64,000 nucleotides of DNA, taken from the IMG/VR virus record IMGVR_UViG_3300020599_000003, positions 64,001 to 128,000 of that record, one strand, 5' to 3'. The translations under genes were made by a program, and so were the position numbers. Every line of letters starts with the position of its first letter. The first letter of the stretch is position 1. Shown here piece after piece: positions 10,097 to 61,993 of the stretch. The stretch comes from a virus. The notes under the pieces are model-generated. The model did no database searches and was not told where the DNA came from. It saw nothing but the letters and a program-made list of their open reading frames with translations.

Positions 10097-11173
10097 TCAC
10101 ACACGAATGCCCTTCGCCACGCTTCGGGTGTTGGCGATCATCGACGCCCAGCTCTGGGTGAGAACCCACCCACGACCCGGAATACCTTCGGTTTCGATGC
10201 CGATCGGCGCCGATTGCAGCGAGTCGCGGTCGGCGTAGGCACCGTGGTTCACGGCGTCGGACACGACGTACATTTCGCCTGCGTTCAGCACGCGATGCTG
10301 TTCGTGGCGGTAGGCGTCGGAGGTCACGGTCATGCCCCACATCGTGGCGAGCTCACCGGTCAGCAGCAGTTCGTGACGCGCGATGGGCGACAGGGCGCTG
10401 TGGAACTCGGTGTTGCCGATGATGTCTTCGTACAGGTCGGCAGCGATCAGGAAGTGCGGAGCCTTCAGACCCCATTGGGTCACGTTGACGCGCAGGCTGG
10501 CGACAGAGTAGGGGGTCAGCTGACCCGACACGACCAGCAGAGGGTTGCCGTCCTGGGTGCCAGCGGCGGCGTCGGCTTGACGCTTCCACAGACGGTCTTC
10601 CGTCACCATGAAGGCTTCGGTGGCTTCCGTGTACTTCTCGCCGAGGGGGTCACCGGGCGACTGGTTCAGGTCGTTTTGGGTGATGTACGGACGGGCGACC
10701 AGCACCATTTCCGCCGGGGTGTAGAAGTTGTCCTTCACCACCTGAGTATCGACGCGGCCGGGGGCGGTCGAGACGACGGCGACGGTGTCCTTCTTGTACA
10801 TCTTGAAGCGGACGATCGAGCCTTGGGCAGGGTTCGTCTTGGCCAGGAACTTACGGGCGAAGCCCTGACGGTTCTGGGTGATGTACAGGGCGTCGGTCAG
10901 GCGTTCGCCGACCAGCTTGTGATAGCCCTTGTCCGCGAAGACCGCAGCGATCAGTTGCTTGTTCGATTCTTCCTTGGCGCGGATCTCTTCGGCCGTGGCG
11001 ATCAGGCCCGAAGCCGCAGCTTCCAGGAACTTCTTCTGCTGGAGCAGCAAGTCCTGCTTGGACGAGGCGTTCAACTCGCCGTTACGGCCGACGGCCAGCT
11101 CACCACCCGGGGTGAAGCGGTAGTCCGTCGCGACCACGGGATGCGCGGAGGCGCGAATCTTGGTTGCTTTCAT
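10097..11173 (-). CDS. Major capsid protein (HK97 fold)
   Basis: 358 aa with strongly biased codons; follows protease, scaffold and decoration genes; QGFARKFL and GELATMWGMTV segments typical of HK97-fold capsids. Confidence 0.85.
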   Translation of the reverse strand: MKATKIRASAHPVVATDYRFTPGGELAVGRNGELNASSKQDLLLQQKKFLEAAASGLIATAEEIRAKEESNKQLIAAVFADKGYHKLVGERLTDALYITQNRQGFARKFLAKTNPAQGSIVRFKMYKKDTVAVVSTAPGRVDTQVVKDNFYTPAEMVLVARPYITQNDLNQSPGDPLGEKYTEATEAFMVTEDRLWKRQADAAAGTQDGNPLLVVSGQLTPYSVASLRVNVTQWGLKAPHFLIAADLYEDIIGNTEFHSALSPIARHELLLTGELATMWGMTVTSDAYRHEQHRVLNAGEMYVVSDAVNHGAYADRDSLQSAPIGIETEGIPGRGWVLTQSWASMIANTRSVAKGIRV

Positions 11174-55267: not shown

Positions 55268-55762
55268 TTATAGTCCCGTGGGGCCGTAGAACAGTTGGTC
55301 CTTGAAGGACAGGATCTGACCGCCGAAGCGCTCAGTGGCCTCCTCGGCCCATTCCTTGTGCGTTGCACCCTTCACCATGTTGATGTGGGCATTGTATTCG
55401 AGGAAGCCGTGCTTCCAACCATTGGTGGCGAGGTTACGATGCTGGACCACAGCCTTGGGGAAGTGTAGGATGCACACGATGATATCGCGGCCCTTGTGGT
55501 CGGTCCAGCATTCGAAGTGCCGGATGCGGGCGTACGGAGGGATGTCGCACTCCTCCCACGGACGCCCGGTGGTATTGCTGAACATCACCGTGCAATGCCA
55601 CTCCATGGGAGGGACGAGCTGATCGCGTTCCGGATAGGTGGCAGCAACCTCGATGAGATCGAACATCGCCTCAGGCGTGAGGTGGTAGCAGAAGTATCCG
55701 CCCTCGCGGCCGAGCACGTCGTTGGCGTTGCGGAGCTGATTGTATTCGAGGCTGATAGCCAT
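55268..55762 (-). CDS. acb1: Acb1-like 2H phosphoesterase (anti-CBASS, T4 gp57B family)
   Basis: WHCTVMFS...FECW...IVCIL...HGFLEYNAHINM matches the 57B layout (HST..YS, LEVW, HDFDDYTPHITL). Confidence 0.75.
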   Translation of the reverse strand: MAISLEYNQLRNANDVLGREGGYFCYHLTPEAMFDLIEVAATYPERDQLVPPMEWHCTVMFSNTTGRPWEECDIPPYARIRHFECWTDHKGRDIIVCILHFPKAVVQHRNLATNGWKHGFLEYNAHINMVKGATHKEWAEEATERFGGQILSFKDQLFYGPTGL

Positions 55763-57932: not shown

Positions 57933-58346
57933 TCAGATGGGCGTGACCCGTTCACCAGCCTTGATGGTGACCACTTCGGTTGCCATGACGTGGAGGGCAC
58001 TGATCTTCGCGTCGCCCTTGGACAGATTGACCGACGGCGGCAGAAGCAGAGCCTTGCCCTGGAAGTTCTTGACGTAGTGGCGACCAGCCAGCTTGAACAC
58101 GGAGTTCTTCGGGACGTCGCTGAACTTCACCACCGACGACGCGCCCAGCTTGGCGACCTCGGAGTCGAGGTCGAACTTGCTGCCTTTGAACACGGCGTTG
58201 CTCTTGCGGGCGGCTGCGGATTTCTTGGTCACGACTTCAGCCGCCTTGGCAACGGTGCGTTTGACATTGACCTTCTTCACGACAGGCTTCTTGGCTTCGG
58301 TCTTGGTAGCCTCGGTGGGGGTCTTCTTGGTTTTGGTTTGCGGCAT
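57933..58346 (-). CDS. Basic Lys/Ala-rich (histone H1-like N-terminus) DNA-binding protein
   Basis: KTEAKKPVVKKVNVKRTVAKAA; strong codon bias. Confidence 0.65.
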   Translation of the reverse strand: MPQTKTKKTPTEATKTEAKKPVVKKVNVKRTVAKAAEVVTKKSAAARKSNAVFKGSKFDLDSEVAKLGASSVVKFSDVPKNSVFKLAGRHYVKNFQGKALLLPPSVNLSKGDAKISALHVMATEVVTIKAGERVTPI

Positions 58347-58377: not shown

Positions 58378-59145
58378 TTACTTGGTCTTGACCCGGTTCA
58401 GCGTGCGCCGCACCGATTCGAGGGTCTTGGGCTTGTTGGCGAGAGCGCCGGACGCGACCCAAAACTCGATTTCCTTGCGCTTGAATCGCTTGCCATTGGT
58501 GCGCAAGCTGTTCAGCGTTTGGACATCGTTCTTGTTGGCGACGCCGATCATCCAGGAGTTGAACTCGCTGGACACTTCGGCAGCATCCGTTGAGGGGTGG
58601 GCCGCCGTGGTCTGCTTGATGGTGCCGGTCCGGCTGGCAATGTAGTCGTCGGACAGATCGGGAGCGCGCTTGATGCGACCTACGTCTTCCGCAGCCAGTT
58701 CCGCGAAGGTCTTGGCTTCGCTGGCATTGCGCTGGCCGTCCATCAGCACCTTCACAGGCGCGTCTTCCAGCGAACGTGCCGACGCGGCTTGCGTGATCTT
58801 GGCTTCACGTTCAGCGATCTCGGCGCGCTCTTCGTCGGCACCCTCGTAGTTGTTCAGGAGTTCGGCGTACTCAGGCGTGATGAACTTGATCAGCTTGTCG
58901 TCGGCGTAGCGACGGAGCAGCGGAGTCTCCAGCAGGTGACGGCGAGGGACGCGATTGGTCAAGCAGTACGGGAGCCACGTAGCCGGTAGCTTGATGTGTT
59001 CGGCCGGGGCATTGGGGATCGGTACGGCCAGGATCAGCTCGCCGATCTGCTTGGTGCGCGGATGGTCGCCGGACGTGTTGATGACCCAGATGGGTTCCTG
59101 GGGATCCTGGCGTTCGACTTCGTTAATAGTCAGCTCTTTTTTCAT
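58378..59145 (-). CDS. Hypothetical protein
   Basis: 255 aa from ATG 59145. Confidence 0.7.
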   Translation of the reverse strand: MKKELTINEVERQDPQEPIWVINTSGDHPRTKQIGELILAVPIPNAPAEHIKLPATWLPYCLTNRVPRRHLLETPLLRRYADDKLIKFITPEYAELLNNYEGADEERAEIAEREAKITQAASARSLEDAPVKVLMDGQRNASEAKTFAELAAEDVGRIKRAPDLSDDYIASRTGTIKQTTAAHPSTDAAEVSSEFNSWMIGVANKNDVQTLNSLRTNGKRFKRKEIEFWVASGALANKPKTLESVRRTLNRVKTK

Positions 59146-59161: not shown

Positions 59162-59500
59162 TTATTGATTCGTGTAGAGAGTGGTAGTTCCGTCGGATAC
59201 GACAACGAAAGAGCCAGCCGGGAGTATGTTGTTTTGGTCGTACCAGACATCGCTCGCCCAGAAAGTGCCGAGCACTCCCTGACTGAACAGTTCGTACCGT
59301 ACAACTGGATCATATGCCTTTGCGAACCAGTGGTTATCGTCTTTCTGGATGTTCTCCAGGAGAACGCTGCTCAAGATGACGGTGGAACTCGGTCGGATAT
59401 TCAGAGCGATGAAGGACTTGACGTCGTTGAAGTCGCACACGGCATGTTGGTCTTGACTGGCGATGGCCGCTTCGATTTGCTCCTTCGTGAGAATGGTCAT
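59162..59500 (-). CDS. Stand-alone paralog of the major capsid protein A-domain
   Basis: 112 aa; about 20 identities over 45 aligned residues with this phage's MCP (manual alignment). Confidence 0.75.
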   Translation of the reverse strand: MTILTKEQIEAAIASQDQHAVCDFNDVKSFIALNIRPSSTVILSSVLLENIQKDDNHWFAKAYDPVVRYELFSQGVLGTFWASDVWYDQNNILPAGSFVVVSDGTTTLYTNQ

Positions 59501-59796
59501 AGGTTGGATACCTCTTTAAACTTGGATTTGATGGAGTCTGTGATGCGGATGACGACTGCCTCAGAAGGGGGACGCTCCCCAACCAAAGCAGCGATGGTCT
59601 GTGCTGACGGTGGATTGCCGTCGAAGGCGCTGGAGTACTTGCATACTCCAGTCTTCCGGTGCTTCCACGTGCAAGACCCTGAAGGCAGGGGGCATACCGG
59701 CGTGATGAGCTTAGCGTTGATGACGACGCACTTGGTATGGTCCTCACCTTCCGAGGCGGCGGAGACAAGTCCGGCCGCTAGGTTGGCTTGGTTCAT
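59497..59796 (-). CDS. Hypothetical Cys-containing protein
   Basis: 99 aa from ATG 59796; CPLPSGSCTWKHRKTGVCKY. Confidence 0.6.
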   Translation of the reverse strand: MNQANLAAGLVSAASEGEDHTKCVVINAKLITPVCPLPSGSCTWKHRKTGVCKYSSAFDGNPPSAQTIAALVGERPPSEAVVIRITDSIKSKFKEVSNL

Positions 59797-59816: not shown

Positions 59817-60521
59817 TTATGTGGAGATCTCTCGCTTGCGAGCTGCTCTGGCATCCAGCATGCGCTGTCGGTATTCGGGATCTTGCCAACGCTTTCTGAT
59901 GAAGTCACTAAAAGCTTTGCGGCGATCAGGATCATCCCAGTCCTTCTTCCTCTGTGCGGAAAGTGCCGCCCGATGTGACGGATCCTGACCGAGCTTCTTC
60001 ATTGACTGGCTCAACGTCTTGCGGTACTCTGGGTCCTGAGCAGCCTCTCTTCGCTTGGATGTCAGACGTGCCCTGTAAGAAGGGTCTTGCCAGAGCTTCT
60101 TGTTGGCGTCGCTGCGTTCCCTTCGTAGTTCTGGATCGGACCATTCAGACTTCCGTACTTCGGACATCTTCTTCCGCGTCGATTCGGAATGACGGAATCC
60201 AGACACCCCTTCGCCTCCAACTGTCAAGTTCGTCAGGCATCCTGTACCATCAACTTCTCTGCCATAGTAGGCAATCCATTCACATTCTAGTTTGAATGCC
60301 TGAGCTTCAGTAAGACTTTCGGCGAGTATCTTGATGCGGATGCGCTTGCCTTCCGCCAGATCCTTCTTGATGATGTTGTTCTTATGCGTGTTGGCACGCA
60401 ACTTGCTTTCTAGGAAGTGCTTCTCTGCGCGGTAGCCTTGGCCCTTACCTATATAGAACGGCTTCTTCTTACGCTCGCGTTACAGGGCGTACACATAGAA
60501 GATTTGCCGATTGGTGCTCAC
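59817..60521 (-). pseudogene. GIY-YIG homing endonuclease with premature TAA at codon 14
   Basis: GTG 60521: STNRQIFYVYAL*RERKKKPFYIGKG...R...LECEWIAYYGREVDGTGCLTNLTVGGEG plus NUMOD3-like SESTRKKMS; TAA at 60480-60482. Confidence 0.8.
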
Positions 60522-60688
60522 TTCGCACCCCGCTTCTTGAGCGACTGGCGGACTGCATCGCAGATGAGCTTGCTGACGGATACGTGAGGACTACCATCAG
60601 CAGAGCTTTTCAACGAGATCATCTTGAGTTGGTTCAGGAGCTTACGCTCGATACTCAAGGAGGTGACGGTGAGTTCAGGCTTCTTCAT
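60518..60688 (-). CDS. Ribbon-helix-helix DNA-binding protein (56 aa; not in ORF track)
   Basis: MKKPELTVTSLSIERKLLNQLKMISLKSSADGSPHVSVSKLICDAVRQSLKKRGAK; GTGA overlap with the endonuclease. Confidence 0.7.
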   Translation of the reverse strand: MKKPELTVTSLSIERKLLNQLKMISLKSSADGSPHVSVSKLICDAVRQSLKKRGAK

Positions 60689-60717
60689 GGCGCTAGTACC
60701 TAGTGGTTAGTAGTGCC

Positions 60718-60726
60718 ATAAAATTG
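60718..60726 (-). promoter_or_regulatory. Putative phage promoter motif CAATTTTAT
   Basis: Exact copy 30 nt upstream of the RHH start. Confidence 0.65.
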
Positions 60727-60738
60727 GGCCTGGTGTGG

Positions 60739-61725
60739 TCAGGCTGCCTTGAGGACAGACTCTCTCAAGCGTAGCAGGGATCCAACCTTATCTACTTCCA
60801 TGCCTGCTGCTATAAAATGCGCTTCGAGAAATTCAGGTATGGATATGCGGATGGCCTCGCCTTGAGCGTGGTCCACATTCATGATCGCCTTGAGGTCCTC
60901 CTTGGTGCGGAAGGAGTTCGTCTGGCGGGTAGTTAGGTGCGCCCAGTCTTCCTGAGTGACGTCAGCACCATCGCTGATGATCAGACGATACAGGATGTGC
61001 GGGCTGGCATCGGCGTTGTCGAGGTCTTCCTTCGACTTGACGATCAACGTGCGGAGCAAAACTGCTGGATCGTGACGTCGTAGTTGGACATTGTAGTCGC
61101 GAGGCGAGTTGAACCGCACGTGAGCGAAGGACTTGTCCTCGCTTTCTCCGTAGCGTGTCTGGTACAGAGTGCCTGGGAAGTACGTGTTGCGCACCCGCTG
61201 AGCCTTGTGGATGTGGCCGATGATGGCGACAGCCTTGGACTCGTCGTCGGACTTGACGGGACGCCCGTTATCGTTGACTGCTCCGGCGACATCGACGTGC
61301 GCAATGTTGAGCGCGTGAGGGTCGAAGCTACGATGCGGGAATGGTAGGAACTGCACCTTGCACCCGTCAATCAGCTTCTTCGTAGGCTTCGTGTAGACTG
61401 AGACGTTGGAGCGACGTGCCTGCATCAGCAACTGAAGGCTGTGACCTGCGGCAGGGTCGTCCCCATACATGTCGTGGTTCCCGAGGATGAAGTGGAAATG
61501 CAGCGAAGGGAACTCATCAAGCAGGCCCAGGAGGGCGATGTGCGACTCGTAGGACATGCGTGGCTTGCTGCATGTGTCACCGAGCATGAAGACGTGCTGG
61601 ATGCCGCGCTCGACTGCATAGTTGCACGGACCTCGTAGTTCATTGGTCACGAAGCTGGGACCATCCTCGACGAGGTTGAAGATGTTCCCATCGTAGTGGG
61701 CATCGCCTAATGCAATGGCTTCCAC
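60739..61725 (-). CDS. Calcineurin-like metallophosphoesterase (SbcD/Mre11/gp47-like nuclease)
   Basis: GDAH, LGDT, ILGNHD, GHIH motifs; probable GTG start at 61725 (frame open to 61815). Confidence 0.88.
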   Translation of the reverse strand: MEAIALGDAHYDGNIFNLVEDGPSFVTNELRGPCNYAVERGIQHVFMLGDTCSKPRMSYESHIALLGLLDEFPSLHFHFILGNHDMYGDDPAAGHSLQLLMQARRSNVSVYTKPTKKLIDGCKVQFLPFPHRSFDPHALNIAHVDVAGAVNDNGRPVKSDDESKAVAIIGHIHKAQRVRNTYFPGTLYQTRYGESEDKSFAHVRFNSPRDYNVQLRRHDPAVLLRTLIVKSKEDLDNADASPHILYRLIISDGADVTQEDWAHLTTRQTNSFRTKEDLKAIMNVDHAQGEAIRISIPEFLEAHFIAAGMEVDKVGSLLRLRESVLKAA

Positions 61726-61739
61726 GTTGCTACCTGTTA

Positions 61740-61993
61740 GATGAGGCGCTACCAAAGAGTACAGCGCCGGGTTGGGGTTGGGGAAGAGGACCACGCTGAT
61801 GATCGGGAAGTCCATCTCTTCGTTCGACTAGAGCTTCTCACCGTCGACTAGGACGGAACCTTGATCCAACCAGCGTTGGAGCTCACTGCGGCTGGCGGGG
61901 CTTGACCTCGCGCTTCTCCGCCTTGGTGTCCACTTCGATAGTGATGAAGTTGCAGACCTTGTGGAGGTCTGCCAGCCAGTCACGCGCTTTCAT
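61740..61993 (-). pseudogene. Degraded small gene (S4-like RNA-binding family), with frameshift and TAG
   Basis: MKARDWL...VKP; removing one base in the 61897-61900 run gives ASRSELQRWLDQGSVLVDGEKL*SNEEMDFPIISVVLFP; TAG at 61828-61830. Confidence 0.5.

Follow-up and report, generated by a model that had tools for sequence, protein, structure and literature searches.

A free-standing, rapidly diverged homologue of the capsid A-domain in a phiRSL1-type giant phage, with counterparts in related genomes

Capsid paralogues of the type of T4 gp24 are full-length HK97-fold structural proteins that are built into the shell. Among the proteins that satellites use, Ccm of SaPIbov5 (an HK97-fold homologue of major capsid proteins, MCPs), CpmB of SaPI1 and Sid of P4 act through contacts with capsid proteins, and Ccm is itself capsid-derived. 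On the side of the host, the sensors Avs7, Avs8 and Avs10 are reported to recognize newly made MCP monomers by the face of their A-domain that forms capsomers (bioRxiv 10.64898/2026.01.04.697583). The locus compared here with these systems is a small ORF, q112, located in a stretch of 64,000 nucleotides, hereafter the window, which corresponds to bases 64001–128000 of a viral contig of 177.8 kb flanked by direct terminal repeats and belongs to a phiRSL1-type giant (jumbo) phage. The features of the window discussed below are the following:

59162–59500, (−) strand: q112, an intact, free-standing ORF of 112 aa derived from the A-domain segment of the MCP
10097–11173, (−) strand: MCP of the phiRSL1 type, HK97 fold, 358 aa, parent family of q112
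10253–10591, (−) strand: MCP segment aa 195–307 (end of the spine helix and A-domain), collinear with q112 in the alignments and placed on the MCP model
59497–59796, (−) strand: ORF99, a small Cys4 protein (CPLPxGxCxWxHR), conserved and coupled in translation to q112, recognized from homologues and polymorphism
58378–59145, (−) strand: p255, conserved gene (PHROG 17686), downstream border of the q112 slot according to PHROG match and synteny
59817–60730, (−) strand: mobile cassette with a 56-aa ORF and a GIY-YIG/NUMOD3-type homing endonuclease (PHROG 314, E 2e-13)
60739–61815, (−) strand: Mre11/SbcD-like phosphoesterase (Metallophos_2), conserved upstream anchor with synteny to phiRSL1 ORF296, BCSR5 and Motura gp041
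55268–55762, (−) strand: Acb1 (anti-CBASS) homologue, directly upstream of a 624-aa gene (Pfam PF23474, E 3.9e-9)
57933–58346, (−) strand: lysine-rich gene of 137 aa that follows p255 and forms a local hot spot of change

The MCP of the window matches PHROG 2522, 'major head protein', with an E-value of 2.5e-71, and shares 54% identity with its counterparts in Ralstonia phage phiRSL1 and in the Burkholderia phages BCSR5 and BcepSauron. The nearest solved relative is the capsid protein in PDB 6wkk_A (Gp27), which is matched by the MCP family profile with E 2e-17, and an AlphaFold2 model of the window MCP (pLDDT 58.7) matches HK97-fold capsids and encapsulins. On this model, the spine helix covers residues 176–204, the strands and helices of the A-domain lie within 213–304, and the strands of the C-terminal P-domain occupy 320–357.

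q112 is a homologue of MCP residues ~195–307. The pairwise BLASTP comparison with the MCP of the window gives 21 identities in 54 positions (E 4e-8), and the Smith–Waterman score is 90, compared with 29.6 +/- 4.6 when the sequence is shuffled 2000 times (Gumbel p 1.8e-8). With hhalign, residues 41–104 of q112 are placed on MCP residues 241–307 of a 39-sequence MCP profile at 90% probability (E 1.5e-6), and q112 itself matches PHROG 2522 with E 7e-4. When the composition correction of tblastn is switched off, the collinear region extends over residues 4–103 of q112 and 195–306 of the MCP, the N-terminal 40 aa alone having a marginal similarity (p 0.03). Since the collinear MCP segment maps there on the MCP model, q112 spans the end of the spine helix and the A-domain. 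It keeps the motif DP..R.E...G..G and the last strand (V.V.SD) of the MCP, relative to which it carries one deletion of 5 aa and another of roughly 16 aa. The first-pass annotation had reported an intact 112-aa ORF at 59162–59500 with 20 identities to the MCP in about 45 positions; the ORF is borne out, on the (−) strand, and the count is close to that of BLASTP. The aligned MCP stretch, given as nt ~10255–10405, indeed corresponds to MCP residues 257–306, the MCP gene does lie 48 kb away, and the absence of the E-loop and P-domain agrees with the secondary-structure map of the MCP model. Thus, homology supports the earlier view that q112 derives from the capsid A-domain, has diverged from it and is a free-standing ORF. 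Concerning its parent, the five best matches of q112 among 121 MCPs are the MCP of its own genome and four close relatives of it (73–99% identical). A foreign MCP as the donor is therefore disfavoured, q112 being an outlier to the whole MCP family with its best matches in its own clade.

q112 is not a capsid building block. Of the 36 positions in the aligned block that are conserved in at least 90% of 128 MCPs, it keeps 14 and has lost 22, and its identities with the MCP show no significant enrichment at conserved columns (p 0.09–0.41). Within this block, q112 is 17–36% identical to any MCP, whereas the most distant true MCPs retain 38–46% identity to each other, and its branch in a tree of MCPs is saturated and placed without resolution. 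The complete HK97 architecture, namely N-arm, E-loop, P-domain, spine helix and A-domain in about 350–365 aa, is reduced to MCP residues 195–307 in the 112 aa of q112. q112 thus belongs to the phiRSL1-type MCP family only in terms of the sequence homology of one domain, since the full architecture and the conserved residues both fail. AlphaFold2 run with an MCP-based alignment returned a model of q112 with pLDDT 39.3 and pTM 0.26, too poor for a fold search, and the ESM Atlas model (pLDDT 0.38) has structural neighbours at TM 0.35–0.44, which are meaningless at such confidence. Neither model thus gives the confident fold needed for the superposition on an HK97 A-domain that the first-pass annotation had proposed as a check.

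The distribution of q112 is extremely narrow. When 5.8 billion proteins were searched through a word index and 1.84 billion representatives exhaustively with HMMER, the only relatives recovered formed a cluster of 97–100% identity comprising four sequence variants, and the word search found none among longer proteins. In cultured phages, tblastn of q112 retrieved only the MCPs of Dickeya jumbo phages; scanning viral contigs with single proteins led only to the 98% cluster and MCPs, and neither Pfam nor PADLOC gave a match. q112 is limited to one phage species, in which it was found on 16 contigs from 16 sample or run accessions; no orthologues were found outside this species.

The genes around q112 are all on the (−) strand, in the order Mre11-like phosphoesterase, ORF99, q112 and p255, and a RuvC-like protein, the Acb1 anti-CBASS homologue (3.4 kb downstream of q112) and the 624-aa gene follow further downstream. 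The conservation of ORF99 and p255 extends to phiRSL1, BCSR5, Motura and several relatives from metagenomes. Homologues of ORF99 include BCSR5 QRE00087, phiRSL1 ORF297 and a protein of the metagenomic locus L019 (p 2e-15 to 4e-15). ORF99 carries the extended motif CPLPxGxCxWxHRxTGxCKY, is conserved behind the Mre11-like gene in phiRSL1, BCSR5 and metagenomic relatives, and has no Pfam family name. A scan of metagenomes with ORF99 yielded four loci, two of which (L163 and L164) were read. In these two and in L019, the p255 homologue directly follows the ORF99 homologue with no gene in the slot, while the slot is occupied by an unrelated 132-aa ORF in BCSR5 and by ORF298 in phiRSL1. Because the ORF99 and p255 homologues are adjacent in relatives and the content of the slot varies, q112 is a derived insertion into a variable slot between both genes.

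The BCSR5 132-aa ORF and phiRSL1 ORF298 were tested as candidate homologues of q112 and rejected, ORF298 being a paralogue of p255 instead. In phiRSL1, ORF298 (L017:3257–3802) looks like a shortened paralogue of ORF299, a member of the p255 family, with the common motifs W-V-N-T-S and P-x-T-W-L-P; therefore, the slot was apparently filled there by tandem duplication.

Just upstream of ORF99, and 300 nt upstream of q112, lies the GIY-YIG cassette, which is present in the window and in the contigs L038 and L041 and missing from the otherwise 99%-identical contigs L003–L011. Its insertion rewrote the first codons of ORF99, and two paralogous endonuclease loci exist elsewhere in the genome (at 108.3 kb and 154.2–154.9 kb of the full contig, G000). 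Since near-identical contigs without the cassette still carry q112, the cassette arrived after q112.

Two further observations concern the surroundings of this locus. In a 7.5-kb contig (L040, positions 1–2694, joined at window position ~59806), ORF99, q112 and p255 are found behind an entirely different left flank with an IS1595-type transposase, an HTH_3 protein and small ORFs, the break falling exactly at the cassette site; this contig represents either a third arrangement or an assembly chimera. On the other side, the lysine-rich 137-aa gene is 95% identical between contigs in which its neighbours are 99.5–100% identical, and it has 14 replacement sites, 8 silent ones and, in some contigs, indels.

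q112 has gene-like signals. A Shine–Dalgarno sequence (AAAGAGG) is located 10 nt upstream, and the ATG start overlaps the stop codon of ORF99 as ATGA. Its GC content by codon position (0.52/0.35/0.66) follows the order GC3 > GC1 > GC2, a pattern that is right in the q112 frame only, while its overall GC of 0.51 and GC3 of 0.66 are below those of the genome (0.58 and 0.74). None of the 16 contigs contains a stop or frameshift in q112, and its indels relative to the MCP, about three, are all in frame. When neutral drift to 36% identity was simulated with substitutions only, and thus with frameshifts not counted, only 7% of the sequences stayed free of stops.

The mode of change within the species differs from that of the neighbouring genes. 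Across the 16 near-identical contigs, q112 is polymorphic at three sites with at least four replacement events and no silent one, codon 106 having three alleles, whereas the flanking genes show 12 silent changes and no replacement (10 silent in ORF99 and 2 silent in p255). ORF99 is under strong purifying selection. As the contrast in replacement and silent changes is significant (Fisher p about 5e-4), q112 is not under the purifying selection seen in its neighbours, and its pattern fits either no constraint or diversifying selection; the neutral expectation for the ratio of replacement to silent changes in q112 is about 3.6:1, so that an all-replacement pattern also fits neutrality. That four events spread over 339 sites should strike the same nucleotide twice has a chance probability of roughly 2%, which is at most a hint of diversifying selection.

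ORFs of this kind recur in other phiRSL1-type phages. The class is defined as free-standing ORFs of about 110–130 aa whose C-terminal two thirds align with MCP residues 218–306, a definition that fits q112. A search of 21 other phiRSL1-type records with the MCP profile gave short additional MCP-like matches in several of them, including five further ORFs on the same segment as q112. At least 4 of the 22 phiRSL1-type genomes carry A-domain-only ORFs of 112–131 aa, at different loci, such counts being biased lower bounds, given that the first-look filter missed even q112 in its own genome; moreover, the concentration on the A-domain may be partly an artefact, since the MCP profile is most informative there and fragments of other regions are harder to detect. 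One of these ORFs, gp073 of Achromobacter phage Motura (YP_009903914), belongs to a cultured phage, is 116 aa long and matches its own MCP with p 1.4e-12. Two others, of 126 and 65 aa, are found in the IMG/VR record designated G001, and another two, of 127 and 131 aa, in the record G005. The 127-aa ORF of G005 directly follows a thyA gene that is interrupted by a GIY-YIG/NUMOD3 endonuclease, the endonuclease lying next to the C-terminal thymidylate synthase fragment (L153:1450–3145, IMGVR_UViG_3300050821_002122). Matches to a G005 mini-ORF in two further loci (L159 and L160) were discarded as a chance motif in an unrelated 207-aa protein.

Aligned together, the six mini-ORFs match the MCP profile in a profile–profile comparison at 98.6% (E 8e-16) over 89 columns, covering MCP residues 218–306. 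All six resemble MCPs more than they resemble one another, and five find their best match in the MCP of their own phage, a pattern that would speak for several separate births or for evolution in step with the cognate MCP. In four of the six, LP replaces the invariant LN of the MCPs; this shared feature appears compatible with a single origin, which it leaves open. In G005, both paralogues remain intact after diverging to 29% identity, and pN (0.50) is lower than pS (0.76); this pair offers what seems the best evidence that such mini-ORFs are kept as proteins. The earlier statement that q112 looks maintained rather than freshly broken is supported by the Shine–Dalgarno and ATGA coupling, the exclusively in-frame indels, the lack of any disrupted copy on 16 contigs and the mini-ORFs with the same boundaries in related phages, including the two intact paralogues. 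The changes within the species, all of them replacements, fit relaxed or diversifying selection and not purifying selection.

Other pieces of the capsid gene were observed as well. At L051:677–1662 (IMGVR_UViG_3300030503_000315, about 8.4–9.4 kb), four small coupled ORFs are arranged in tandem, and different MCP pieces are found in three of them. The pieces are the A-domain, a C-terminal IPGxGW together with an N-arm motif, and the A-domain core, and three of the four ORFs start with MRP(R/K)VKV or MRRQVKV, resembling the N-terminus of the MCP itself. A second class of capsid pieces comprises ORFs or open frames of roughly 130–190 aa. In the two ORFs of this class that were read, phiRSL1 ORF279 (L055:2529–3032) and BCSR5 QRE00052 (L056:2285–2833), the C-terminal end matches the N-arm region of the MCP (profile positions 67–120, motif NRxGFxRRxL), and matches at 190391–190528 of BcepSauron (G011) and at 198597–198701 of G009 were assigned by profile range only. 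No N-arm-type piece was found in the genome of the window.

The reading that we prefer, with a rough probability of 0.4, is that q112 is a real, fast-evolving accessory gene acting as a mimic of the capsid A-domain, with a putative role as a decoy. In this reading, the part of the lineage's own MCP gene that encodes the A-domain (aa ~195–307) was copied into the junction of ORF99 and p255, and the protein has since changed very fast, losing the residues needed for capsid building. The data establish the origin of q112 from the A-domain, its boundaries, its insertion, the recurrence of such ORFs and the mode of sequence change; translation, folding, any binding and the decoy role are inferences. 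If translated and folded, q112 may be a soluble mimic of the A-domain surface that is exposed on the unassembled capsid monomer, and it could compete for whatever binds this surface. The likeliest partner would be a host immune system sensing newly made capsid protein, while binding to the capsid protein of the phage itself or of a competitor would be less likely. Because Avs7, Avs8 and Avs10 bind the A-domain face of new MCP monomers, the decoy idea has a concrete target, and the Acb1 anti-CBASS homologue 3.4 kb away also counts for the reading of q112 as a mimic. No phage-encoded A-domain decoy is described in the study of these sensors (10.64898/2026.01.04.697583) or in the other literature searched. 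Moreover, a mimic of the A-domain might trigger a capsid sensor instead of blocking it. The wider idea, namely that giant phages have time and again derived short soluble versions of the A-domain from their own capsid protein and retain them as fast-evolving decoys, which would blunt sensors like Avs7/8/10, Dsr1 or CapRel that detect new capsid monomers through this very surface, we regard as rather doubtful.

The main competitor of the mimic is a decaying relic: illegitimate recombination would have placed a copy of part of the capsid gene in a slot prone to recombination, where it is still open by chance and travels as an operon passenger without a role. Polymorphisms that are all replacements, as expected without constraint, the loss of most MCP-invariant residues, the lack of a predicted fold, the orphan status of q112 and its GC3 below that of the neighbours are consistent with such decay, as are a hypervariable slot beside a mobile endonuclease cassette, with a third, unrelated left flank in L040, and the 7% of substitution-only drift simulations that remain open. 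Nevertheless, the frame has survived saturating divergence with indels in frame only, the Shine–Dalgarno sequence and the ATGA coupling are in place, 16 contigs are devoid of any broken allele, and the domain boundaries and size recur in four phages, one of which holds two long-diverged intact paralogues. We consider a relic somewhat less likely than the mimic, and it deserves serious weight. The origin of the fragment has also been sought in the GIY-YIG endonuclease, either through the repair of an endonuclease-induced break with capture of capsid-gene sequence or through an endonuclease that took adjoining capsid sequence along when it moved. Such a by-product scenario covers the origin of q112 and not its function, and is compatible with the other readings. 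The polymorphic cassette 300 nt upstream of q112 and the position of the 127-aa G005 mini-ORF directly behind an endonuclease-split thyA invite it, but q112 is present in contigs without the cassette, which consequently came later, no endonuclease was seen beside Motura gp073 or the G001 array, and with three such endonucleases in the genome a chance proximity is not negligible, all of which makes it the least probable of the explanations considered.

Alternatively, q112 could modulate or poison capsid assembly, a free A-domain binding monomers at the capsomer interface and thereby adjusting how the phage's own head assembles or how large it becomes, or blocking assembly by co-infecting relatives or satellites. 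The A-domains of HK97-fold proteins make contacts around the 5- and 6-fold axes, the mini-ORFs track the MCP of their own phage, and q112 sits between packaging/nuclease genes and the 624-aa gene, all of which would suit a partner of assembly. However, the MCP-invariant residues that would form such contacts are mostly replaced in q112, the patchy distribution is at odds with a core assembly pathway, and fast replacement change is unusual in a structural partner; an assembly modulator is accordingly improbable, if slightly less so than the endonuclease scenario. The recurrence of the same domain and boundaries at different loci, tracking the own MCP, points to a selected function or to a specific generating mechanism.

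If the decoy reading is true, q112 would represent an undescribed class of anti-defence genes, born from the structural gene that it protects. A phage-made mimic of the capsid face gripped by sensors is a concrete and testable candidate for counter-defence, for which Motura gp073 provides a cultured handle. If q112 is only debris, it documents how fragments of structural genes seed orphan ORFs in the accessory slots of phages.

Compared with the systems described so far, q112 is a sequence homologue of the A-domain segment of the phiRSL1-type MCP and is devoid of the N-arm, the E-loop, the P-domain and most of the spine helix; unlike the MCP, it lies 48 kb from the head genes. It resembles T4 gp24, the vertex protein and paralogue of gp23, in that both are duplicates of the capsid gene of the same genome, but q112 is a single-domain fragment, unlike the full-length paralogues of the gp24 type. 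Ccm, CpmB and Sid are encoded by satellites, and Ccm has the full fold, whereas q112 belongs to the 178-kb genome of the phage itself and lies among conserved phage genes. Avs7, Avs8, Avs10, the Dsr1 sensor, CapRel and Lit/Gol are host proteins that recognize newly made MCP, while q112 is encoded by the phage; it derives from the very part of the MCP that Avs7, Avs8 and Avs10 bind (10.64898/2026.01.04.697583), which makes these sensors a possible target. The literature searched contains no description of single-domain capsid fragments that persist as genes of their own. Full-length capsid paralogues such as T4 gp24 and the capsid-redirecting proteins of satellites are the nearest described kinds to q112, and the recurrent A-domain-only mini-ORFs of phiRSL1-type phages are new here.
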